Assembly: GCF_030144855.1 (NCBI RefSeq) | Contig: NC_082731.1 | Span: forward strand, 11,222,001 to 11,286,000 | Direction of reading: 5' to 3' | DNA from: Hypanus sabinus | Taxonomy: Eukaryota | DNA: 64,000 nucleotides | Shown: in pieces, positions 13,260 through 51,949 of the stretch | Numbering within the stretch: the stretch's first letter is position 1 | Layout: each line of letters begins with the position of its first letter | The notes under the pieces: model-generated | Databases searched by the model: none | What the model was told of the DNA's origin: nothing | The model's input: only the letters and a program-made list of their open reading frames with translations | Program-made: the position numbers and the translations under genes

Positions 13260-14160
13260 AAATGGATACAGAGGCTCATGGGGTGGTAGGTAAGGGCAAT
13301 TGGAAACCGATTCCTGCTATGGTCATTATAGGCACAGTATAATGGCACATTAGGCGAGAAATGCAATAGATGCAGTTGAACGAAGTATCGATGGAAGTAG
13401 AAGGGAGCCCATGGATTTTGAAAAAGGACACCTTAGATGTTCTAGAATGGAACCCTCATTCTGAAGAAAAATGCAGTGGAGATAGAGGAACTGAAGGAAT
13501 CGAATAGCATTTTTACTGGTGACAAGGTGGCAACATGCCACAATAACTGTGGGAGTCAGTGATTTTATAAAATATGTCAGTAGATAATCTGTCTCCAGTG
13601 ATTGAGACAGAGAAATTGAGGAAAGGGGAAACAGCTATCAGAGATGGACCAAGTAATTTGGAGTGTTGGGTGGAAGTTCGAGCTAAAGTTGATGAAATTG
13701 AGGAGCTCAGCATGGCTGCAGGAAGCAGCAAACATATCTTCATTGAAGCAGTCTTCAATGTCACTAACAAAGAAATGGAGTCCATTACTAGTGTAGGCTT
13801 GGAACATGGACCTTTTTGCACAGCTGATGAAAAGACGGATGTTGTTTGGGCCCATGCAAGTTTCCATTGCTATGTTGCTGGTCTGGAGAATGTTGGAGGA
13901 GCCAGAAGTAAAATTGTTGAGGGGAAGTATCAGTTCTGCCAAACAAAGGAGAGTGGTCCTGGAGAGAAACGAGTTAGGGTGGTTGTTCAAAAAGAAACAG
14001 AGATCCTTAACGCCTTCATAATGTGGGATGGATATGAATTGGAAGTGGATGTTCATTGTGAAAATAATGTCATTTGGGCCAGAAAGCAGGAAGTTATTTC
14101 TGTGATGGAGAGCGTGAGAAGTGTAACAGATGTAGGTAGGAAGGGTGAAGGTTAAGGAAA
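13260..14160 (-). mobile_element. Penelope-like element, RT region (decayed)
   Basis: Minus ORF 13577-14056 reads SIPHYEGVKDLCFFL...TTLLCLAELILPLNNF...AMETCMGP...SCSHAELLNFINFSSNFHP, followed by STDIFYKITDSHSY. Confidence 0.9.
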
Positions 14161-14929
14161 GGAATGATCCAATTGGGACAAAATGGAATCAAGATATGCA
14201 GAACAGAATTCAGTGGGCAGAAACTGGTAGCACAATAGGCTTACTGAGCAGTTTGGTTTGTAAATCATGGGTATCAATGTGCAGTGCTCCAGTAGTGCTC
14301 ATTATATCCGTACTTCTCAAGACTGACAGCATCTGCAGAAATTTGTGCATGCATTGACTTCAGTCCCTCTATTATTAAACAGTCCATATATTGTAATATT
14401 GTTAAGTAGCTCACCAGCTGACATATCTCGGGCTGCAGAAGGAAGCCAGGGTTGATAGAGTAAACTCACAGTAAATGAGAGGACATGCAAACCCCACTAA
14501 AACAGCACAGGGAATCAAGATCAAAACAGATTGCTGAGTTGTGAGGTAACAGTTTACAAGTCCATTCATACTCTTGTTAAGAATAGAAGTGATGCTGACC
14601 CTAGTCTCTGATCCACTATTCTTCCCACACCTTTATGGGAACGATTTTCTTGTTGAATTTGGATATCACGTGGGTCCAGTCGCCTTCTGAATTATAGCCC
14701 AGATCTGGAGAGCATGCAAAGGAAAAGTCAGACAGCAGCAAGTTCCTTTATTCAGGACTTATTACACTGACAAGACTGCACATTGAGTGTGAGCTCAAAA
14801 ATACTCTAATGATCCAAACACCCTCCTGAAATTTGCAACATTCACATTACAACTGTTGCAGATTTTATTGTTTCACACAAATGCAACAGTGACTTCATTT
14901 TCATTTTAGGTTTTAATCATTGCCAATCA

Positions 14930-23934: not shown

Positions 23935-25040
23935 GAAGCAAGAGGCTCAGAGTCGAAGACTGAAGCATCGCGGAGAGAATGTCGTTTTTTTTTAACTGAT
24001 CAGCGAAAAGAGGCTGACTGCGCAGGCGCATGACGCAGGGCGTCGAGGTTTAAAAGGGAGAGAAAAACTTTCAACATTCTTTTCAATGGAAGCAAGAGGC
24101 TTAGGGTGGAAGAGTGAAGCATCGCGGAGGGAAGATCATTTTTTCTTTTCTTTAACTGACCGGGGAAAAGAGGCGAGACTGTGCAGGCGCGTGATGTAGC
24201 GCGCCGGGGTTTAAAAGAAAGACCGCCATATACAGAGGCCATCTTTGTACCGGACATCTTCGGAGTGGACCGGCTTTGGCTCAATCAGGCTTCAGCGAGA
24301 AACAGGCAGGGGCTAGAGCAGGTTCAGGTAAGTTTCTGTTTTTCTTCTTTTTTGTTTTGTTCAGACTAGAGAATATGACAAGCAGGATGTTGGAATGCTC
24401 CTCTTGCAGGATGTGGGAGGTCTCCCTGACAACGATACCTGCAAGAAGTGCATCCAACTGCAGCACCTAACAGACCGTTTTAGGGAACTGGAGAAGCTAG
24501 ATGACCTCCGGATCATTCGGGAGACTGAGCAGTTTATAGATAGTAGCTTCCGGGAGGTAGTTACACCTAAGGAATAGGCCACAGGTAATTGGGTTACCGT
24601 TCAGTCGACGGGAAGGGGAATGAAGAGGTAGTGCAGGGTTCCCCTGTGGCCAATCCCCTCCATAACAGGTATACAGATTTGGATACTGTTGGGGAGGGTG
24701 GTTGGATGTCTTACCTGAGATAAGCTGCAGCAGCCGGATCTCTGGCACTGAGTCTGGTTCTGCAGTACCGAAGGGAAGGAGAAAGAGGAGAGCGGTAGTG
24801 ATAGGGGACTCCACAGGAGAATCTGTTGTCGAGACACCCTGATGGTTTGTTGCCTCCCGGGTCCCAGGGTCAGGGATGTCTCTGATCGCGTGCACAACAT
24901 TCTGAAGTGGGAGCGTAATCAGCCAGATGTTGTGGTACACATCTGTACCAATGACATAGTAGAAAGAGACAGGAGGTCTTGAAGAGTGAGTACAGAGAGT
25001 CTTTTGGGAAGTTGAAACACAGGACATCAAGGGTAGTAAT
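23935..25040 (+). mobile_element. CR1 LINE 5' UTR and ORF1 (Zn-finger plus SGNH esterase-like), 3'-truncated
   Basis: ORF1 begins near 24376: MLECSSCRMWEV...CKKCIQLQHLTDRFRELE..LDDLRIIRE, then RAVVIGDS and PDVVVHICTND (GDSL/SGNH motifs). It is preceded by two ~154-bp degenerate CpG-rich units. Confidence 0.9.
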
Positions 25041-25194
25041 CTCCGGAAGGTGTCCTGAATGCTAGGGAGGGAGGCTAGTGCCCATTATGGAAATGGCAGA
25101 GTTTTCAGCTTAAGGCAGCTTTTTCCGACCCTGTGAAGTGGCTCCTCCGTACCAGATGGTGATGAAACCAGTTAGAATGGGCTCCACATTACAT

Positions 25195-25704
25195 TTTTCA
25201 TTTTTAGAATCTTTTTCTAGGTACATAATCTTCTACAGCTATAAAACGATACAAGACTTCAACAAATTAATATATCTACAATTAATAAAGCTGAGGAAAA
25301 TAAAAGCTGATCGTAATATATGAAAATGAAAAAAATATATATAAGGAAAAGGATAAAAAGGAACCCAATCTAACTCAAAAAAAACCCCACTGACTACAAA
25401 AAAAGGGGGAAAACTCATTCGGAATCAACCCCCGGAGCAATACGTCTTACCATCCTCTATATATATATATAGAAAAAGAATCATGAACCACCAATTCATA
25501 TTTATATAGAATAAGATTGGAAGGAAACCATATAAAATAATTCAAATGAAATGATAATATTTGGCAAAAGCGCCCCATCTTCTCTCAAAATTAAATCGGG
25601 GAACGAAAGTTTTACTACTAATTTTTTTTTCCAAACTGAGACATAACATTACTTGAGAAAGCCATTCAATTAATGTAGGGACAGAGGTATCTTTTCATTT
25701 TAAT
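25195..25704 (-). mobile_element. L1-clade LINE, 3' end segment
   Basis: Reads continuously with 30622-30779 across the Gypsy insertion (VLARRAILLK*KDTSVPTL). The T-rich end near 25195 fits an A-rich tail on the minus strand. Confidence 0.75.
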
Positions 25705-26507
25705 TGTTATAATCCCAGCCCCCTCCTTTGTGAGAATTGCAAGAGCATCCGTCGAGAGGGGGGGTGGGTCAGTAGACCCAGTCGGAGAGAGAGAGAGACG
25801 TGCCAAATTGCAGGTCCCACCAGGGATACAGAATAAAGACAAAAGCGACTATTGTCTCATGGAGACCACGTGAAAAGCCCTTGGGCAAGGTGGGCTGGTT
25901 GAGAGAGAGATTGCATCATCACAACCTGATTGATACCTGCGACCCCGTGAGGAAGTATAAAGGAGAGTCTCAGGGGGACAGCCCCCTCAGACGCACCAAG
26001 AAGACACGAAAGTGTTCCCGCAGCAGCGGGAAGCCATTCTGAAGGAAGCCACGTGCGTTAGATTCCGGGATTGGAATCTGTGGCTGGAATCACAGAAAAC
26101 CGCTTTTAACTAACATCGGGGAGAGGAAGCCAACGCTCCCCCGATTTCACGGAAGATTCATCGAGACTCGGCAAGTTCTTTCTCTTCTCCCCCAATCTCT
26201 CTCTCTCGGTCGCCCCACGGAAAACCCAGCGATTTTCAAAGGGCTGAGGCCTGCAGACTTTGAGTGACTTTTATATTTCCAACGGACAATCTATTAACCC
26301 CTAGACACCAGCAGAGCTCACTTCTTAATGATGATTATTACTATACCCGCGCTTTAGATTGAGTGTTGACGATGTGCACTACCTGAATGTTTGTATTCAC
26401 CCTACTTTTGTGTCCCTTTATCAATAAAAACTTCGACAATAGTGACATCCGAGCAACGGACCTCTCTATCTTTGCTGGTAAGTTCTCCAGTTACGGGATT
26501 CGTAACA
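25705..26507 (+). repeat. 5' LTR of Gypsy element (803 bp)
   Basis: Direct repeat of 29803-30617, roughly 95% identical by eye. Contains TATAAA (aagtataaagg) and AATAAA. Confidence 0.95.
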
Positions 26508-26509
26508 GT

Positions 26510-26533
26510 TGGGGATCTCGTCTTGGGATTTGA
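26510..26533 (+). promoter_or_regulatory. Primer-binding site, tRNA-Pro-like (degenerate)
   Basis: tggggatctcgtcttgggatttga, 2 nt after the LTR, resembles TGGGGGCTCGTCCGGGATTTGA (complement of the tRNA-Pro 3' end). Confidence 0.7.
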
Positions 26534-26620
26534 CACCAAATTGGGAGGCCAGTGAATCGGGCTTCTAAATCAAAAACTTGAATCTGGTTACGCGGGTAGC
26601 CAGATGGGAAACCAGCAAAG

Positions 26621-28052
26621 ATGGACGTGGGTGAATTTATGGAAAACCCGACGGTGGGGGCGATAGAGGCGGCCACAAAATCAGACTTGTTAAACTTAGC
26701 GAAGGGATTGAACCTCACAGAAGTGAGGTCGTCCATGAAAAAGCGGGAGGTACGAAGGGCCGTAACTCAGTATTACATTGGGAAGAAGGTGTTTGAAGCT
26801 GAAGTATTTGGAGATATCCCTGAAGAGGTACCATCAACTGGGACGGTTCTGTTAGACGTGGAGAAATTGAAGTTGGAACGTGAAATTAAGTTAAAAGAGC
26901 TGGAAGCGGCTGAGAGAGAGAGAGGGAAAGGCAGCATGAAATTCACCTAAAGAAGCTAGAAGCAGAATAGAAACAGAGGCAACATGACTGGGAAATTCAG
27001 AAGATGAGAAACGAGCGAAGAGATCAAGGATTAGACCAAGCAGAGCGGCTTAATGTTAGTAGGGAGTTGAGATTGGTGCCCCCGTTCGAGGAGGCAGATG
27101 TCGATAGTTATTTCTTGCTTTTTGAAAAGGTGGCAGTAAGTCAGAAATGGCCAAAAGAGCAGTGGGTGGCGTTGTTACAAAGTGTGTTAAAGGGGAAGGC
27201 CCAACAAGCATATGCGGCCTTGTCCCTGGAGGAGGGAGGAGTGGAGAATTATGATGAGGTAAAAAAGGTCATTCTCCGGACTTATGAATTGGTACCTGAG
27301 GCCTATAGACAAAAGTTTAGAAATTTAAGGAAAGGGTGGAATCAAACGTATACCGAGCTAGCCCATGAGAAGGGGGTGCTCTTGGACCGTTGGTGCACCG
27401 CGGAAAGAGTGGGCGAGGATTATGGGCGTCTCAGGGAGTTGTTTTTGATTGAGGAATTTAAAAGTTGTGTTCCGGAGGAGATCCGGGTGCATTTGAATGA
27501 GAAGCCAGATAAGTCCATTTCAGAATTTGCCAGGTTGGCGGACGAATATGCCTAACCCACAAGACAAGGACTCCCTCGAATAAAAGTCCCCAGAGAGACT
27601 GTGGGAACGTTCGAGAAAGTCCGACGAGTGAGGCAGAGGTCCCACCGGGAGCTAGCGGTAAGGTTGAGGGGGAAAGGCAAAACGGCCAGAGGGCTCCGGG
27701 TTTGACCTGTTTTAATTGTGGAAAGGAAGGGCACATTGCATCTCGATGCTTTACTCCGAGGAAGGAGGTAGGAAGAGGGAAAGCCGCAGTCCCTATCAGG
27801 TGTGCCGTGGTAAGCAGCAAATCGACCAGAGAGCCGAGAGTAGACAGAGTACGAGAAGGCTCTGGGAGTTGTCTGTCACACGGAACCGTGTCTGTGACGG
27901 AGGGAGACACACCAGTTCCCGTACGAATCTGGAGGGATACGGGCTCTGAATTATCCCTGGTTAGCCGTAAGGTACCAGAATTTGGTCGGGAAACGGGCAT
28001 GGTAAAGGTGGAAGGAATATATAAACGGATAGAAATGGTGCCCTTAATATAA
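26621..28052 (+). pseudogene. gag: gag-protease of the Gypsy element, frameshifted (ORFs 26621-26950, 27004-27555, 27702-28052)
   Basis: RLVPPFEEADVDSYFLLFEKVA...WP...LLQSVLKGKAQQAY...YELVPEAYRQKFR...RLRELFLIEEF (SCAN-like), CFNCGKEGHIASRC (CCHC) and IWRDTGSELSLV (DTG aspartic protease). Confidence 0.9.
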
Positions 28053-28074
28053 GGTCATTCTGGATTGTGAGCTG

Positions 28075-29418
28075 GTGTATGGATCAGTTGAAGTGGGGGT
28101 GCCCTCAGAATTCCCGAGAGCTGACGTGGATATCCTGCTGGGGAACGACTTAGCAGGGGGTAAGGTTTGGTCAGCCATGCTGCCGACCTGGCGACCGGCG
28201 AGTACGGTGGCCCCGTCCCTAGCGCCTAAGGACCATCTCGCCGGCGCGGTCACTTGCAGCCTGTCGAGAGAGAGAGAGAGAGCTGTGAACGAGAGCAGAT
28301 TAAATCTGGCCAGTTTTGATTTGGCCGAGACGTCTTTGCCGACCCTGTGCCATGAGGGTTTCCAGGGTGGTAAAACGAAGAGTAGTAAAGTGAAAGGGGG
28401 TAAGGGAGAGGAGATAGATCTGCCTTTAGCGAAGAGAAAGGTCCTAAAGGTAGGAGATAAAGATGAGAAACAGATAAAGCTGTTGAAAGGTCCAGAGTTG
28501 GACATGGATGATCTGTCTGGTTTGGCAGAATTGTTTGAAGAACTTGAGAGTTCTAAAGGTGTTCCCGACAATGAGAGGGGGGCAGTCCTAGATGGAAAGG
28601 ATACCCTTGCCTCGAAGGGGTCTGCTGAAAGGGCCGAGGAGGTTGTTTCAGCTCGCAGGGTTGCGCCTTCCCCGGGTGGGAGCTGCCTAGAGAGTAACTG
28701 GGAGGATCAGGGGAAGTTAGAATTTGAAAAAGGTACGGGTGTTGAAAGCCTGGAAGAGGCCAATGTCCCGTTTGAGTGTGTCCGAGATGGCGATGCCTGA
28801 GGTGCTGAACCTGGTAACGGAGCTCAGAAGAAGTCTGAGATATCTGATCCAGTGGAACGGGGCGGCCGTCCTTGTGGGTCAGATGGACTCGGTTCAGTGG
28901 GAAAAGGGTTAACATTGGTAACCGGGGAAAGTGTGAGTTCCCCGGCGTCTGTACTCGAAGGAGTGTTCAAAGTTAATGCAGAATTTAAGAATGGGGGGGG
29001 GGGGGTGAGGATTCTTGGCGAAGGAAACGAAAAGTCTGTAGTTTCCAAATCGAAGGAAGAAGTCTTAAACCTGGCAGATCGCTCACAGAGTGAGCCAGGG
29101 AATAGCCAGGGAATCTACTCTATTGTTATGCCAGGATGGGGTGTGAAGAGGCCGCCTTCGACAGGCTACTTGAGCGAAGAGTTCGAATCAAACACCAATA
29201 GCCTGAAGGGGACTGATAAAAGTGTCAGCCACCTGGGTAAAATCGAAGAATTGGGTGAAAAGGGTCTAAGTTTGGGGCATGGTGTTGCAAAAATAACCCC
29301 GATGAGCGGGGCGGGCGGGAGTTCCCCACGCCAAACTACTCAAGTTCCCCACGGGGGGCGGGGGGGCTCGCTGGAAAAGAGGGGACGGTTAATGGGGATG
29401 CCATTGTTAGACAGCTAA
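28075..29418 (+). pseudogene. Protease C-terminus followed by a ~380-codon extension of unknown function; one in-frame TGA at 28798-28800
   Basis: DILLGNDLAGGKV and AVTCSLSR...DLAETSLPTL are typical post-protease motifs. ORFs 28075-28800 and 28852-29418 are in the same frame (offset 777) with only that one stop between them. Confidence 0.6.
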
Positions 29419-29791
29419 GCAGGTTGAACAGGCTTGTGCCAAACCTGTGAATAATAAAGACAGCCCTTTGTAGACCTGCCGGTTAAGTTAAACGACTGAA
29501 ACGATTAGTATTCGCGTAAACTTTTGTAAATGCACCTAAGCTAAGGTCACACCTCCTTAGTTTTGTTGCTTAGAAAAAAATAAATAGGTGGTTATTGAAT
29601 TGAAGTCTGATGTACAGTTCGCAATGTTAAGATATTAAAGAAAGGGACACTGTAATCGTTAAATATATAGATACTGAGTTGAATGTATAACGGTAGTATT
29701 TTGTGAAAAGAAAAACTTTTGTACTGTGCTAGATTCAAAACTCCTGTAAGACTGGACCACTCCGTTTTAACCGCTGGTAAAAACGTTTTTT

Positions 29792-29802
29792 AAGAGGGGA
29801 AG
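29792..29802 (+). promoter_or_regulatory. Polypurine tract of the Gypsy element
   Basis: AAGAGGGGAAG immediately before the 3' LTR, preceded by a T-run. Confidence 0.85.
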
Positions 29803-30617
29803 TGTTATTATCCCAGCCCCCTCCTTTGGGAGAATCGCAAGAGCACCCGTCGAAAGGGGGGGGAGGGGGGGTCAGTAGAACCAGTCGGAGAGAGAGAGAA
29901 AGACGTGCCAAATTGCAGGTCCCACCAGGGATACAGAATAAAGACAACAACGACTATTGTCTCATGGAGACCACGTGAAAAGCCCTTGGGCAAGGTGGGC
30001 TGGTTGAGAGAGAGAGATTGCATCATCACAACCTGATTGACACCTGCGACCCCGTGAGGAAGTATAAAGGAGAGACTCAGGGGGACAGCCCCCTCAGACG
30101 CACCAAGAAGACACGAGAGTGCTCCCGCAATAGCGGGAAGACATTCTGAAGGAAGCCACGTGCGTTAGATTCCGGGATTGGAATCTGTGGCTGGAATCAC
30201 AGAAAAGCTCTTTTAAGTAACATCGGGGAGAGGAAACCAACGCTCCCCCGATTTCATGGAAGATTCATCGAGACTCGGCAAGTTCTTTCCCTTCTCACCC
30301 AATCTCTCTCTCTCGGTCGCCCCACGGAAAACCCAGCGATTTTCAAAGGGCTGAGGCCTGCAGACTTGGAGTGACTTTTATATTTCCAATGGACAATCTA
30401 TCAACCCCTAGACACCAGAAGAGCTCACTTCTTAATGATGATAATTACTATACCCGCGCTTTAGATTGAGTGTTGACGATATGCACTATCTGAATGTTTG
30501 TATTAACCCTACTTTTGTGTCCCTTTATCAATAAAAACGTTTGAAAATAGTGACATCAGACTTCAACGGACCTCGCTATCTTTGCTGGTAAGTTCTCCAG
30601 TTACGGGATTCGTAACA
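29803..30617 (+). repeat. 3' LTR of Gypsy element (815 bp)
   Basis: Direct repeat of 25705-26507, ending TAACA and followed by TSD TAAT. Confidence 0.95.
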
Positions 30618-30621
30618 TAAT

Positions 30622-30779
30622 AAAATAGCCCTTCTTGCCAATACTGTAACAAATTCAATTATATGTTGATCTGAAGATGAAATATCCTGAATATGATGTG
30701 GAACTATTAAAAAAATAATCAAACTATCAAATTAATTTTCGGAGCTTTAGAAATTGTTGAAAATAAAGATTTCCAAAAC
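30622..30779 (-). mobile_element. L1 ORF2 C-terminal segment stranded between two LTR insertions
   Basis: Joins to 33842 onward as FWSCSSLNLFWKSLFSTISKAP and to 25700 as LARRAILLK. Confidence 0.85.
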
Positions 30780-30784
30780 AGGTT

Positions 30785-31457
30785 TGTGCTGTCTTTACGA
30801 CAGTTATTTAGTTTATAATATTTTCGCTTAGTAATTCATTCAATAGTATTTTCTAGTTAGAATTAGAAGTGTTTAAAGTATATTCATTGCATGTAAAATA
30901 TATCGGCATGCGATGACGTCACATCCGGTTTCGCCGCGTCTTGTGGGAAAACACCGGTTTGAAATTAGCGCGAGGGTGGGGGCTTTCCACGAGGCTCACC
31001 TGAGCACAAGCAGTTTTGCAGGCATGAGAAATCACAGTGAGAGCAACGCTGTAAGTTAATAGATAATCGATATATTGAACTAAGATGTTAATGCTGATCC
31101 TGTTAGAGGTAACGTCGGTAGATAATGTTTATGCTTTCGTTAGTTAAAGAGTCGCGGATAGTTTGCATGGAAGTGTATTTAAAGTAGTCAATGGAGCAGG
31201 TAAACTCTCCCTGTATACTGCACCTTAGTGTAATGTAGTTATAGTCACCTTTGCAAGTATTTACACTTGAAATGTGATATTAAGGAAGGAACAAATACTG
31301 TATCAATCTTGTATTGTTTTATCAACAGTTTTCACCATATGTTAATGTGAAGAGTGAACAGTAAATGGTTAATCTTACTGCGATCTGGTTCTTATTAACT
31401 GTGGTTTATCCGGACGTTAAATTCGGCGTTTCGTTACACCCGAAGGAGAACGTGACA
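30785..31457 (+). repeat. 5' LTR of BEL element
   Basis: Direct repeat of 33164-33836. Confidence 0.95.
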
Positions 31458-31495
31458 GTGAAAAAGCGGCATTATCAGGTGTTTCAAGTGCTGCA

Positions 31496-33106
31496 ATGTC
31501 AGCTCAATCCAGCATCAAGTCGACGCCGCCCAGCGACAAGGGCAGTAAACCGACATCAAGTAAGCCCACCCAGGCGTTATCAGGTGTTCCAAGTGCTGCA
31601 ATGTCAGCTCGATCCGGGATCAAGTCGATGGCGCCCAGCGACAAGGGCAGTAGAACGACATCAAGTAAGTCCGCACAGGCAAGAGCCAAGGCAGAAGCCG
31701 CCAAGGTGCGACTGCATTACGCCAAACAAGAGGCAGTTTTGAAAATGAAACTGGCCACCAAAGAAGCCGAAAGGGCCGCCAGACAAAGAGAAGAGGCTGC
31801 CAGACAAAGAGAAGAGGCCGCCAGAGAAGCCGAAACCCAGTTGGAAATGGCAAAAATATCGACAGAGTTGCATGTGCTGCAGCTAGAAGGAGAAGGAGAA
31901 GCTGCCAGGGTGGAAGCAAAGTACATAGAACAAGCTGAAGGGTCGCGTGATCTGACCGAAGTAAGATCTACTTTAGAAAGGACCAGACTGGAACGCACAA
32001 GCGACTATGTACAATATCAAATAGACAGGCAGGCTCGTCTCCCCTCTCCATACGTATTCGATAACTTCCCCAGCTACGAGGAACCTCAGAGAGTCACGAT
32101 TGCATCACATCCATACGAGGAAGGAAATTTACCCTCACGGCTCCGTGATGAAGTCAAGAATGAAAGAACCGACAACGCTCCTTCACCCCCACAACAGGAC
32201 GGCGGGGAGGGAGAGGTTCACTCCAGGACAACAATTGTCAGCTCGAACTGTACAGAAGTTTGCGGTCAAACTCAGTCAAGCCGTTCTTGTTCCGAGATCT
32301 GCCTCACTGAGGTGTACCCTAAAGAAGCACAACAAGACATTACCAAGCGTAAAGTAACCGACGAGACGCTAGGTCAGTCAGTTTTCGTTCAAACCGAGCA
32401 CGGAAACAAACTTGCACAATCAGCTCAAGATACCATTTCTTTAAAACCCAAAGACACCAAGGTCTTCAGAGATGAAGCAAATAATGGGGTTGCCCCATTG
32501 CCTATCAGAGAACCATGCCAGCGCTCACCAGATAACAAAGAGCAGGCAGTCAAACGGTTCACGTCCTTACGGAAAACCTGGAAAAGGAAACCTGAGATAC
32601 AGCAACGCACCCGATTGGCCCACGAGGTACTGTGCACCCTAATGGCAGAGGTCACAGCCATTATAAACGCACAATCATTCCTACCTGTGTCTTCTGACCC
32701 AGAAAACCCCTTTATACTTTCGCCATCAACGCTCCTTACGCAGAAGGCAGGAGCACCTCCTCCACCAGGAGACTTCTCAGACAAGGATTTGTACACAAAG
32801 CAATGGAGACAAGTCCAGGCTCTGGCAAATCAGTTCTGGCCTCGCTGGAGACAAAAATATCTACCTTTGTTGCAACAGAGACAAAAGTGGACAGAACCCC
32901 GAAGGAATCTTCAAGTTGAAGACTTAGTCCTGCTCAGGGACAAGCAAGTCGCTCGCAACAGCTGGCCAACGGCCAGAATCACTGCTACATTCCCTAGCGG
33001 GGATGGACATGTCAGGAAGATCGAATTGAAGACTACCGACCAAGGCGATGTGAAAATTTACCAAGGGCCGGTTACAGAAGTTATTCTACTTCTACCCAAT
33101 GACTGA
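31496..33106 (+). CDS. 536-aa intact mosaic ORF: BEL gag N-terminal coiled coil, pre-RT linker pieces and integrase C-terminal region
   Basis: ARAKAEAAKVRLHYAKQEA (gag), CTEVCGQTQSSRSCSEICL, VAPLPIREPCQRSPDNKEQAVKRFTSLRK, then directly HEVLCTLMAEVTAIINA...LSPSTLLTQK...WRQVQALANQFWPRWRQKYL...QKW...NLQVEDLVLL...W...RI...DGHVRK...PVTEVILL. Confidence 0.8.
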   Translation: MSAQSSIKSTPPSDKGSKPTSSKPTQALSGVPSAAMSARSGIKSMAPSDKGSRTTSSKSAQARAKAEAAKVRLHYAKQEAVLKMKLATKEAERAARQREEAARQREEAAREAETQLEMAKISTELHVLQLEGEGEAARVEAKYIEQAEGSRDLTEVRSTLERTRLERTSDYVQYQIDRQARLPSPYVFDNFPSYEEPQRVTIASHPYEEGNLPSRLRDEVKNERTDNAPSPPQQDGGEGEVHSRTTIVSSNCTEVCGQTQSSRSCSEICLTEVYPKEAQQDITKRKVTDETLGQSVFVQTEHGNKLAQSAQDTISLKPKDTKVFRDEANNGVAPLPIREPCQRSPDNKEQAVKRFTSLRKTWKRKPEIQQRTRLAHEVLCTLMAEVTAIINAQSFLPVSSDPENPFILSPSTLLTQKAGAPPPPGDFSDKDLYTKQWRQVQALANQFWPRWRQKYLPLLQQRQKWTEPRRNLQVEDLVLLRDKQVARNSWPTARITATFPSGDGHVRKIELKTTDQGDVKIYQGPVTEVILLLPND

Positions 33107-33153
33107 TTAAGAGACTAAGTTTGTACTCTGCTCATTGTGACCTTACGAAGGTC

Positions 33154-33163
33154 AAGCGGGGAG
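33154..33163 (+). promoter_or_regulatory. Polypurine tract of the BEL element
   Basis: AAGCGGGGAG directly upstream of the 3' LTR. Confidence 0.7.
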
Positions 33164-33836
33164 TGTGCTGTCTTTACGACAGTTATTTAGTTTATAATAT
33201 TTTCGCTTAGTAATTCATTCAATAGTATTTTCTAGTTAGAATTAGAAGTGTTTAAAGTATATTCATTGCATGTAAAATATATCGGCATGCGATGACGTCA
33301 CATCCGGTTTCGCCGCGTCTTGTGGGAAAACACCGGTTTGAAATTAGCGCGAGGGTGGGGGCTTTCCACGAGGCTCACCTGAGCACAAGCAGTTTTGCAG
33401 GCATGAGAAATCACAGTGAGAGCAACGCTGTAAGTTAATAGATAATCGATATATTGAACTAAGATGTTAATGCTGATCCTGTTAGAGGTAACGTCGGTAG
33501 ATAATGTTTATGCTTTCGTTAGTTAAAGAGTCGCGGATAGTTTGCATGGAAGTGTATTTAAAGTAGTCAATGGAGCAGGTAAACTCTCCCTGTATACTGC
33601 ACCTTAGTGTAATGTAGTTATAGTCACCTTTGCAAGTATTTACACTTGAAATGTGATATTAAGGAAGGAACAAATACTGTATCAATCTTGTATTGTTTTA
33701 TCAACAGTTTTCACCATATGTTAATGTGAAGAGTGAACAGTAAATGGTTAATCTTACTGCGATCTGGTTCTTATTAACTGTGGTTTATCCGGACGTTAAA
33801 TTCGGCGTTTCGTTACACCCGAAGGAGAACGTGACA
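33164..33836 (+). repeat. 3' LTR of BEL element
   Basis: Direct repeat of 30785-31457, followed by TSD AGGTT. Confidence 0.95.
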
Positions 33837-33841
33837 AGGTT

Positions 33842-36800
33842 TAATGAGGAACATGACCAGAACATATATGACAAAGTAGCTACTTCAGAATTACACCTAT
33901 TGCAGTAGTTGTCTATACTAGGAAATATTTTAGATAGTCTGTCTTTTGTTAAATAATAACAGTGAACAATTTTAAACTGAATTAAACACATATAACAGAA
34001 GAATTCTTGTTTTTCAGAACTCGCAACCAATCTTCATCAACAAAGGTCATATTAAGTCTCTCTCCCAATCTTGTTTAATCTTTAGTGAGAGGTTATCTTT
34101 CTGTAACAAAAATAAATTATAAATTCTGCTAATGGAACTTCCCATTGAAGGATTCAAATTCAAAATGGTATCCACCAAATCAGATTCTGGCAAATATGGA
34201 AACTTACATAAATATTGTTGTAAAAAATGTCTAACCTGAAGATATTGCAGAAAATGTGTATGAGGGAGTGAATTTTTGTTAATTAACTCTTCAAAATCGA
34301 CCATCACAAAATAAATCTGTAAAAGAATGGATCCCTTTATTTCTCCATGGGAGAAAAATGGTATCGGTTATTGAAGGTTCGAATAAATAGTTTCGACATA
34401 GAAACTAGACAACTTAAGTTGTTTTAAATTTAAAAAATTGCAAAACTGAAACCAAATCCATAAGAACTTTTTAATAATGGGGTAAAGATTTAAATTTGGA
34501 ACTTTAGAGTTGTAAAGGTAATGGAGGTCCTAATATTGAGATTAAATGAAGTTGTTCAACAGCTTTTAATCCCAAATCTACCCATAGTAATTTGTGGCTC
34601 TTCTTGAGCCAATAGAGCCAAACACATAATTGTCTGATATTAATAACCCAATAATACAGTCTTAAATTAGGAAGTGCAAGTCCACCATCATTTTTTTAGA
34701 TTTTTGTAAATGATACTTATTATTTCTTTGTCTCTTATTGTTCCAAATAAAGGAAGAAATAAGAGAGTCAGTTTGATTTAAAAAAAATAAAAAATAATTA
34801 GGTATATTTTGGAAAATATATAACATTTTTAGGCAAAATCATCATTTTTACATCACGGATATGACCAATTAAAGAGAGACTAAGTGGATTCCAAATAGTT
34901 GTTTCATGGAGTCCATTACTATATTAGCTTTATAAAGATTGTTATATTTTTTAGTAATTATAATACCAAATATTTAAAAGTATTAACAATTCTGAAAGGA
35001 ATATCATTATATATAAAACTGGGGCAATTAATGCAAACAATTCACTTTTATTCAAGTTAATTTCTGATCCTGAAAATTTACCAAAATCTTTTAGTGTTTC
35101 CAAAAGAGTAAGAACTGAGTTCCTCAGGATTCGAAATAAAAACCAAAAGATTATCTGCATGAAGATAAATCTTTTGTATGGTTCCATTCATGGAGATACC
35201 ATGGATATTTTTAGGTTCACGTAGTGTTTCAAATAATAAAAGCTTAATAGACATCCCTGTCTAGTACCATGAGAAAGTGAAAAAGTGGACCTGAAATTAT
35301 TAGCAATAACGGTGGCAATAGGATACTTATAAATCATTTGAATCCACATATTGAAATTATTACCAAAACCAATTTTTTCTAATAATGCCACTCAACTCTA
35401 GCAAATGCCTTTTCTGCGTTGAGAGATAACAGATTGAGGTTGCTTAGATAATGGTGAATATATAATGTTCGTCAAACTAAGAACGTTAGAGAAAGGGTAA
35501 CGGCCTATAATAAAGCCCGTTTGAATCATAGAGACGATTTATAGTTCATTAATATTCCAAGCGGTGAGCCATAATCTTAGAGAGAATTTTTGCATCCACA
35601 TTTAATAGCGAACTAGGTCTATATGATGAAAATTCAGTAGGATATTTATCTTTCTTAATGATTAAGGAAATAGATGATTCATAAACTGCCCTCAATGAAT
35701 TCATGAAATATTTCCAAATGATTCGGAGAAAGTAGTCTTACAATTTTTTAGTAAAATCCTACTGAACAACCATCAAGTCCAGGAGCTTTACCTGCTGATT
35801 GCATTAAGAAAATATCTTTCTGAAGTTCATGCTCAGTAATTGGAGCATCAAGCATCTGTTGATCTTCAGCAGAAATTTGAGGAAATTTAATCTTGTGTAA
35901 AAAAAACACTTCAATTTGGAGGAATCTGCAGGAAATTGAGATCTATAATGCTCAGAATAAAAATCCTTAAAAAATATTATTAATGTCTTCATAGTTACTT
36001 GCTATATCTCCATTATTTTTACGAATCTTTAAGATTTGTCTTTTAGCTCTAGCTGTTGTTAATTGGGAAGCAAAGAGCTCATTATTTTTAATCACCAAAA
36101 ATATAAAATTGGCTTTTCAATTTAAGCAAATATCCTTCAATAAGATATGTTAATAATAAATTATATTGTGATTGTATTGTGAATTCTACTCTTTGGAGAG
36201 ATTGCATAAATGTTATCTAATTCTTTAATTTGTTTATACATTTTATCTAATTCCATTCTTGTTTGTTTCTTCAGTTCAGCTATAGACGAAATAATCTGAC
36301 CACGTAAATAGGCTTTTAATGTATCCCAAATTACTAACTTTGAGACGTTTCCTGTATTATTAAAATAAAATCTTTTATCTTAGTTTCAATGAACTCAACA
36401 AATCCTGAACTTTGTAACAAGTGTTCTGGAAAACGCCAAAATGGTCTAGTAGAAGCAACATCTTTCAGATCAAATATTAGGTTTAAAGGAACATGATCAT
36501 AGATAACAATTGCATCATACTCACATTTCTGAACGTTAAATAAAAGTCGAGGGTCGTTTCTCGAATATTTATTATGAACATGTGGAAAAAAAAGAGTATT
36601 CTCTATCACTAGGATACTTGTGTCTCCAAATTTCAATTCAACCATAATCAATTAAAAAGGAATTAATAAGTTATGAAGAACGATTATGAAGTTGATATTT
36701 GGATGATGACTTATCCATTAATGGATTTAAACAAGTATTAGAATCATCACCCATTGATAACATATATTCATTTAAATCACGTAATAGAGCAAAGACAGCT

Positions 36801-50388: not shown

Positions 50389-51949
50389 AAGAAGGAGGCC
50401 TTACGCTACTTTCTTGACAATAGACCTCACCAGTTCCCCAACATCACCACGCTCCTCCGGTTGGCGGAACTGGTACCAAGACTTAATAACTTCTTTTTCG
50501 GCTCTTCCCACTTTCTTCAGACTAAGGGTGTAGCTATGAGGACTTGCATGGGCCCCAGCTATGCCTGACTCTTCATGGGTTATGTGGAACAGTCTATGCT
50601 CCAAATCTGTACTGGTACTGCTCCCCAACTTCTGCTTCACTACATTGACGACTACATTGGTGATGCTTCCTGTACCCATGCTGAGCTTGTCAATTTCATC
50701 GACTTTGCCTCCAACTTTCACCCAGCACTCAAGTTCACTTGGTCCATCTCAGACACTTCTCTCCCCTTCCCCGATCTTTCAGTCTCCCATCTCTGGAGAC
50801 AGACTGTCCACTGACATCTTCTATAAACCCACTGACACCCATAACTAACTTGATTATACCTCTTCCAACCCTGCCAAATGTAAAAATATCATTCCCTATT
50901 CCCAGTTCCTGCATCTCCGTCGCATCTGCTCCCAGGATGAGGCTTTCTGTTCCAGGACATCTCAAATGTCCTCTTACTTTAAGAATCATGGTTTCTCTTC
51001 TGCCATCACCAATGATGCCCTCACCAGCATCACCTCCATTTCCCGCACTTCGGCCCTCATCCTATCCTCCCGTCACCACAACAGGGACCGTGTTCCACTT
51101 GTCCTCACCTACCACCCCACCAGCCTCCGGATATAGCATATTATCCTTCGCAACTTCTGCCACCTTCACCAGGATCCGACCACAAAGCACATCTTTCCCT
51201 CTCTACCCCCTCTGCATTTCGCATGGATTGTTCCCTCTGCAACTGCTCGGTCCACATGTCCCTCCCCACAGATCTCCCACCTGGTACTTATCCCTGCAAG
51301 CGTAAGTGCTACACTTGTCCCTACACCTCATCACTTACCACCATTCAGGGCCCCAAACAGTCCTTCCAAGTGAGGCAACACTTCACTTGTGAGTCTGTTG
51401 GGGTCATCTATTGTATCCGGTGCTCCTGGTGCGGCCTCCTCTACATCAGCGAGACCCAACGCAGATTGGGGGACCGCTTCATTGAGCACCTCCACTCCGT
51501 CCGCCACAACAGATAGGATCTCCCGGTTGCCACCCACTTCAACTCTGCTTCACATTCTCATTCGGATACGTCCATACTTGGCCTCCTCTACTGCCATGCT
51601 GAGGCCAAATTCAGGTTGGAGGAGCAACACTTCATATACCATCTGGGTAGTCTCCAGCCCCTTGGTATGATCATCAAATTTTCCAATTTCTGGTAATTCC
51701 CTCCGTCTCTCTTCCCCCCTCCCACTTTCACTCTGCCTTCTCTTCTAGCTGCCTATCACCCCTCTCATGATTCTGTCTTCTTCTACTAACCATTGTGCTT
51801 TCTCCTTAGATTCCTTCTTTAGTTTTCCTGCCGATCCCCTCCATGCTTCTCCTCCCCCAACCTTTGATCTTTCCTCTCATTGGTTTTTCACCTGGCACCT
51901 TCCACCCTACCCCCACCTTCTTTTTAGGGCCCCTGCCCCCTCCTTCTTA

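Follow-up and report, generated by a model that had tools for sequence, protein, structure and literature searches.

The window, a 64,000-nt stretch of the Hypanus sabinus genome (contig NC_082731.1, positions 11,222,001 to 11,286,000 of the forward strand), contains a BEL/Pao element of 3,052 bp at 30785–33836 (window coordinates; Table 1), with no second copy elsewhere in the 64 kb. The first-pass annotation had described its LTRs as identical and its target-site duplication (TSD) as perfect, and alignment agrees: the two 673-bp LTRs match at 673 of 673 positions, and AGGTT stands at both flanks. The TG...CA ends and 5-bp TSD of the element accord with the norm for BEL/Pao (Belpaoviridae), given in the available text of PMC12440569 as TG...CA ends with a TSD of 4 to 6 bp. 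Identical LTRs and a perfect TSD are the sole grounds for treating the family as a candidate for current mobility. The 5′ LTR has a CpG observed/expected ratio of 1.2 and an AGTAAA poly(A)-like signal at 31360, plus motifs at 30914 and 30921 that we take to be CRE-like and ETS-like, respectively. Two further BEL elements, L001 (1044) and L003 (166), have interiors that begin GTAAAAAGAC and likewise a non-TGG primer position, such that all three elements (window, L001, L003) carry GT(A/G)AAAAAG instead of TGG at the start of the interior. Rfam gave no matches across 25000–36000.

Table 1. Features of the BEL/Pao element, in window coordinates
Feature	Position	Strand	Remarks
5′ target-site duplication AGGTT	30780..30784	+	also at 33837..33841
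5′ LTR, 673 bp, TG...CA	30785..31457	+	same letters as 3′ LTR
Canonical intron-like segment in LTR	31051..31328	+	GTAAGT (the LTR's only one), pyrimidine tract, CAG acceptor
Non-TGG primer-site position, interior begins GTGAAAAAG	31458..31467	+	lineage trait
105-bp tandem duplication doubling the start region	31468..31681	+	second ATG = Met36
Mosaic ORF P0001, 536 aa, no stops	31496..33106	+	
Block 1, aa 1–224: Gag N-terminus, long helix aa 57–147, variable 21-bp repeats	31496..32167	+	
Junction J1, aa 224/225	32165..32176	+	~370 aa gone (capsid region, CCHC knuckles)
Block 2, aa 225–276: stretch from knuckles to protease Asp motif	32168..32323	+	
Junction J2, aa 276–278	32321..32329	+	~190 aa gone (protease)
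Block 3, aa 279–370: protease–RT linker	32330..32605	+	Gly replaces conserved Trp at 331
Junction J3, aa 369–371	32600..32608	+	~890 aa gone (RT, RNase H, integrase zinc finger, DDE)
Block 4, aa 371–536: integrase core end plus DUF5641	32606..33106	+	
Polypurine tract with GGGGAG end	33150..33163	+	precedes 3′ LTR
3′ LTR, 673 bp	33164..33836	+	
3′ target-site duplication AGGTT	33837..33841	+	

The element sits in a decayed LINE-like fragment (33785–34367, minus strand, and 30620–30784) with a weak zf-RVT match, and deep contig coverage marks the 5′ flank (30620–30784) as repetitive. Adjoining it is a Gypsy-like LTR element (25702–30617; LTRs 94% identical) that encodes a SCAN-domain Gag, a zinc knuckle, and a protease-like motif; beyond this motif, its frames are of low complexity and have no Pfam match to RT or integrase. 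Judged by these features, it is possibly another Gag-protease-only non-autonomous element, now broken. Decayed dispersed copies at 13571–14188, 51016–51516, and other positions, which have no Pfam match, presumably belong to a Penelope-like element, going by their motifs.

A single uninterrupted 536-aa ORF filling a 1.7-kb interior, with every catalytic domain removed, had been noted on first reading, and both points hold. The frame is stop-free and occupies 1,611 of the 1,706 interior bp (94%), and motif scans of its product, P0001, returned no CCHC knuckle, protease Asp motif, YxDD, or integrase HHCC and none of the three DDE motifs; every one of these motifs was recovered in two full-length relatives, P0014 and P0036. 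With 0 of 3 DDE motifs present, the integrase core is entirely lost and not merely incomplete. DUF5641 (aa 435–530) is the sole Pfam family above the cut-off in P0001. The protein of an autonomous BEL/Pao element is about 2,000 aa long and includes DUF1759, knuckles, protease, RT, Peptidase_A17, and rve, whereas the window element retains about a quarter of it and no catalytic motif; lacking knuckles, protease, RT, RNase H, and a DDE integrase, it is a BEL/Pao derivative and not an autonomous member. What it shares with the autonomous elements (L001, P0014, P0036) are the LTR ends, 5-bp TSD, polypurine tract, non-TGG primer position, LTR intron layout, collinear domain remnants, and DUF5641. 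The first ATG of the ORF is supplied by the tandem duplication, Met36 is the start in three of five sister gene models, and the open frame already begins at 31421, within the LTR.

The predicted fold of full-length P0001, built on a 6-row alignment, is of low confidence (mean pLDDT 40), with higher values for the helix at aa 57–147 (pLDDT 75 to 82). The final ~67 aa are predicted to form an SH3/Tudor-like barrel (pLDDT about 95). The best fold comparison of the barrel reached Z 8.4 (rmsd 2.0 over 55 residues), and Foldseek gave weak rows to foamy-virus and Ty3 intasomes; neither a viral fold search with the low-confidence full-length fold nor a PDB sequence search produced matches. Complex prediction for the coiled coil with P0008 scored 0.01, a value that weighs neither for nor against association.

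Relatives of P0001 were retrieved by a phmmer search of 1.84 billion representatives and carry Peptidase_A17, DUF1759, rve, and DUF5641. P0001 aligns to the longer ones as four collinear blocks, in the order of a BEL Gag-Pol, separated by three in-frame deletions (J1 and J2 gauged against P0156, J3 against P0014) that together remove about 1,450 aa, capsid core and knuckles included. At least three separate deletions had been proposed in the first-pass annotation, and alignment to longer relatives maps three cuts rather than only one. The left flank of J1 extends in P0004, P0008, and P0063 and its right flank in P0156, with a contig loose end at 32167; a loose end for J2, at 32328, is listed in all four runs examined. 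One side of J1 and of J2 is thus seen as DNA, with the remainder reconstructed from proteins, and the position of J3 is common to Hemitrygon elements and P0016. Both ends of each cut encode similar residues (x-Asp-Asn at J1, Lys-x-Ala at J2, and Gln-Gln at J3), short homologies that would fit reverse-transcriptase template switching. In the intact BEL ORF of L001, homologies of 5 to 8 nt are in frame 0.35 to 0.39 of the time, and the chance of all three junctions being in frame is 0.04 to 0.06. Microhomology as the cause of in-frame junctions was rejected (in-frame share, 0.27 to 0.39); because the share is just 35 to 39% for 5- to 8-nt homologies, template switching leaves the open frame unexplained.

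Other mosaics exist among BEL proteins. Two contigs of about 2.1 kb (P0070 and P0158) encode an independent 645-aa BEL mosaic from which about four stretches (capsid, protease, RT/RNase H, and integrase core) are missing in frame; the knuckles are retained, and the final residues are out of frame. Gene models from pipefish (P0045/P0160) and Xenopus laevis (P0023) join Gag and protease to an integrase tail, with the left break near the RT start; this layout could reflect deletions, real splicing, or model artefacts, and P0045 and P0023 were left uncounted because gene-model introns could yield it.

At 90%, P0001 belongs to a five-member cluster; its four companions and P0002 are gene models from five further contigs of Hypanus sabinus; the nearest Atlas cluster (102 chordate members) may be P0001's own. 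Whether other copies carry the same junctions and open frame had been posed as a check, and all six family proteins (on six contigs; 93 to 97% identical outside the repeats) share J1, J2, J3, and the open frame, so that the copy is not unique. Intact cis signals, absent enzymes, and dispersed copies of shared structure are the marks of a non-autonomous LTR family; a domesticated gene, expected as a single fixed locus with decayed LTRs, does not agree with identical LTRs and at least six loci. NCBI annotates the family copies P0002 and P0004 as "plectin-like" host genes, and a warning for annotation follows: database entries present copies of the family as host genes, either "plectin-like" or uncharacterised.

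Sequencing runs add DNA evidence for the junctions. About 70% of the words sampled are present in five of the eight listed runs: X1–X4, which come from one study of organism A and possibly from the window's own source, and one run from organism B. No RNA run was among those listed, which bears on expression in neither direction. Contigs were compared for four runs, with X6 (small share) and X7–X8 left out as evidence. Contigs of X2 and X3 span J2 without differences (depth about 870 to 900), and those of X5, from the second organism and second study, span J1, J2, and J3; an X3 contig over J1 passes it by 29 letters and, under a 31-letter rule, is excluded from the bridging count. Deleted-form contigs in X3 have a depth of about 900, versus 58 for one contig undeleted at J1, which gives only a hint that the deleted form dominates because contig depth is no copy number. 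Undeleted relatives exist, as P0117 and as contig loose ends; an intact ray BEL element, a helper candidate, was not found among the retrieved proteins and contigs. Six clustered differences at 32432–32452 define a J2-deleted subfamily retaining Phe315 (the form listed at this place in X5, and about 10% in X3), and, as sequence, the cluster looks like a recombination tract.

In three proteins of Hemitrygon akajei (P0003, P0156, and P0157), J3 falls on the same residue, yet the protease is retained, and two of the three keep the whole Gag; they share a 31-aa in-frame gap in DUF5641. They represent a multi-copy Gag-plus-protease BEL element without RT, RNase H, or integrase core. Position 331 is Gly in all nine J3 proteins, as against Trp in 22 and Phe in 2 of the 24 other motif-matched proteins. 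In a tree of the linker (34 rows, 88 columns), the J3 forms of both genera come together (97/89) to the exclusion of P0117, an undeleted Hypanus protein, and a Hypanus-only clade is rejected by an AU test that used 19 of the 34 rows (p 0.029); trees of the N-terminal and pre-protease regions were poorly resolved. From the same breakpoint, Gly331, the tree grouping, and the AU test, we deduce a single origin of J3, the Hemitrygon evidence consisting of predicted gene models and J3 as a DNA junction being fixed by the window itself. P0004 has the family N-terminus and lacks J1. The deletion picture of the first-pass annotation thus stands as to the three deletions but needs revision as to their history, which is stepwise: J3 is old and spans two genera, and J1 and J2 are later. 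The element is young in the window copy and older in its first deletion. Linker drift per site since J3 is 0.15 on the Hypanus stem and 0.09 on the Hemitrygon stem, against 0.05 for the undeleted P0117, and drift in the integrase block is 0.077, half the linker speed. Conserved residues are among those changed: 3 to 4 of 17 conserved linker columns (versus a median of about 1), the conserved barrel positions 475 and 524 (each in four of the six copies), and the conserved Arg-Pro at 393–394 (in all six).

On neither the Hypanus nor the Hemitrygon stem has a stop or frameshift become fixed since J3. The neutral chance of both tails staying open is 0.00005 to 0.02 at the linker rate and, roughly, about 0.001 to 0.07 at half the Hypanus rate, figures that are products of rows and are based on 88 columns plus an assumed indel rate; recombination with a helper could refresh segments, blurring the estimate. 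Among 40 of the 272 variants, 23 lie in the ORF and comprise 11 synonymous, 12 missense, and no stop changes (expected synonymous share, 0.27 to 0.29; excess p 0.034 among these 40 of 272); without six clustered sites, the excess is 8 of 17 (p 0.074), a weak signal from a filtered list. Four of the five distinct length variants listed in the ORF are in frame, three as changes in repeat units and the fourth as a 39-nt deletion outside the repeats, and, among 12 of the 14 small indels, those in the ORF appear as compensating pairs in diverged X5 sequence. An out-of-frame 140-nt deletion, the one frameshifting deletion listed, occurs at about 3% of main depth in X2 and X3; it lies near the ORF end, and both shifted frames reach a stop no more than about 110 nt from the native one. 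A 301-nt deletion taking out the start has a depth of 7. The less-deleted Hypanus relatives P0004 and P0016 finish in shifted frames. Free frameshifting of sister copies, which would have told against the first-pass annotation, is thus not the rule among the common listed contig variants, which are in frame, although one minor out-of-frame deletion is present.

Two circumstances affect what these frames can tell: the copy was chosen for its long ORF, and protein searches reveal open frames only. With about 10 private substitutions per copy, 23 to 46% of copies would be open by youth alone, and youth alone accounts for the open frames of individual copies. Over the sequences compared, conservation is stronger for the frame than for the protein, and selection for translation to the native stop is probable. 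The earlier suggestion of selection to stay translatable therefore receives moderate support, but drift at conserved residues points to the frame and less to a well-kept protein.

The intron-like segment of the LTR, which ends just ahead of the poly(A)-like signal, recurs in the 3′ LTR (33430–33707); one X3 contig (depth 418) runs across without it, with 29 letters on its shorter side. A distant intact BEL element, L001, has the same layout of donor, acceptor, and poly(A) signal in its LTR (776–949), and the acceptor is present in L003 (about 1–60). Because both LTRs retain the intron, the window copy derives from unspliced RNA. The leader contains 12 upstream ATGs when unspliced and 4 with the intron removed (start site assumed near 30950), and 12 are awkward for translating genomic RNA. 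Splicing at the 3′ LTR would place the native stop 324 nt upstream of a junction, and junction-dependent decay would then not spare open copies; a decay model is, for this reason, confined to unspliced RNA and would act through 3′ tail length (633 nt, versus about 2 kb after an early stop). The intron could separate mRNA from genomic RNA, or could have yielded a shorter-LTR subfamily; as a conserved feature of BEL LTRs, it is a separate lead on the split between mRNA and genomic RNA.

We think it somewhat probable that these copies form a non-autonomous dasyatid BEL/Pao family that arose by stepwise deletions and has been under selection, in cis, for translation to the native stop. J3 would have come first, leaving Gag and protease joined to an integrase tail, and J1 and J2 afterwards, each deletion probably arising by reverse-transcriptase template switching at short homologies. 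Because the LTRs, primer site, and polypurine tract were kept as cis signals and the enzymes and capsid lost, a helper must lend capsid, protease, RT, and integrase. Variants translated through to the native stop would have out-replicated frameshifted ones, with the benefit falling upon the translated RNA itself; most likely, such RNAs would avoid the decay that meets early stops and long 3′ tails, and a link between the RNA and helper Gag through the nascent coiled coil, of the kind described for IAP 1Δ1, may add to the benefit. Since the coiled coil alone requires only block 1, a frame open to the end implies a need at the RNA level or for the C-terminal barrel; drift in the conserved barrel and a frameshift variant that stops close to the native stop favour the RNA-level reading.

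Rather unlikely, in our judgment, is that neutral luck sufficed, i.e., that three cuts happened to be in frame and that a short, well-packaged RNA was then amplified with the ORF as a by-product. Some 1 in 17 to 27 triple-deletion families would be open at birth and a scan picks such cases, youth accounts for open copies, conserved residues drift, and a frameshifted variant exists; against this stand two stems with zero fixed stops or shifts since the shared J3, the extra in-frame gap in Hemitrygon, and the listed 39-nt non-repeat deletion, also in frame. Selection could instead have acted on a two-ended adaptor protein, needed as one chain, whose coiled coil binds helper Gag and whose integrase barrel binds its own RNA or DNA. 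The long helix and SH3-like barrel are in frame in both lineages, the Hemitrygon gap ends just short of the barrel, and the fusion protein of IAP 1Δ1 is described as cis-acting in the available text of PMC7411935 and PMC7060167; the changes at barrel positions 475 and 524 and at Arg-Pro 393–394 speak against it, as does the fact that RNA signals alone would preserve both interior ends, and we regard this adaptor as quite unlikely. Equally doubtful is its extension to a three-tier series of parasites (autonomous BEL, Gag-protease-only form, and a triple-deleted form pared to a minimal cis-acting adaptor), in which the Gag coiled coil would join helper particles and the barrel would grip the element's own nucleic acid. 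If true, the retained blocks would show which parts of a BEL polyprotein cis packaging requires, and mosaics of this kind, e.g., P0070/P0158, would mark a recurring unnamed class.

A benefit to the host, through a dominant-negative or domesticated protein restraining autonomous BEL elements, is very improbable. For one of the sister models, a single protein is listed under three transcript accessions, and several accessions per model in the NCBI pipeline usually mean RNA evidence; a truncated Gag-integrase chain could also poison particle assembly. Multiple copies, identical LTRs, a fresh TSD, and variable repeat number, however, describe a spreading parasite rather than a fixed locus. Barely conceivable is the idea that J1 to J3 arose by splicing and that the family goes back to a retroposed, spliced mRNA from an autonomous element: although this would account for a breakpoint common to two genera, and the LTR does contain a canonical intron, the undeleted sequence past J2 begins with C instead of GT, relatives go on with Ala (J1) and Gln (J3) codons, and short homologies flank the cuts. 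Selection in cis for translation to the native stop, acting on a stepwise-deleted family, is the reading we retain.

The closest known system is mouse IAP 1Δ1, which the available text of PMC7411935 and PMC7060167 (both citing Saito et al. 2008) describes as non-autonomous and helper-dependent, with an in-frame gag-pol deletion and one fusion ORF, and as out-transposing full-length copies, its fusion protein aiding in cis. The stingray element resembles it in its in-frame gag-pol deletions, single fusion ORF, and need for a helper, and this BEL derivative may, by analogy, work in the same way. The two differ in that IAP 1Δ1 is of retrovirus type with one 1.9-kb deletion, whereas the stingray element is a BEL/Pao derivative with three stepwise deletions, one of which spans two genera, and has lost capsid core and knuckles. 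Plant TR-GAG elements, in the available text of PMC4350172 and PMC8704663, are LTR elements of <4 kb with one ORF and no RT and are proven movers. They retain the Gag capsid and have no integrase similarity, in contrast to the stingray element, which is without the capsid (DUF1759 region) and keeps the integrase tail and DUF5641; identity with TR-GAG was rejected for P0001 on these two counts. With Gag and protease kept and J3 as its only junction of the three, the Hemitrygon form is nearer to TR-GAG than the triple-deleted form and is its animal counterpart.

TRIM and LARD elements are defined by a non-coding interior, and this identity was rejected as well, 94% of the interior being one ORF. 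Defective-interfering RNAs that keep a fused open frame are helper-dependent deletion genomes with in-frame junctions; these are transient RNA-virus genomes, whereas the stingray family is germline-integrated. In the literature searched, largely open-access papers and exclusive of Repbase, neither a BEL family with several in-frame deletions nor an intron in a BEL LTR was described.

The usual view of non-autonomous LTR elements is that they are non-coding passengers, and IAP 1Δ1, the main case in which translation matters, concerns one deletion in one mouse family. Three successive frame-keeping deletions with a drifting protein make the stingray family a natural experiment that sets translation, protein selection, and chance against one another, and it suggests that such freeloading elements spread better if their RNA is translated to the end.
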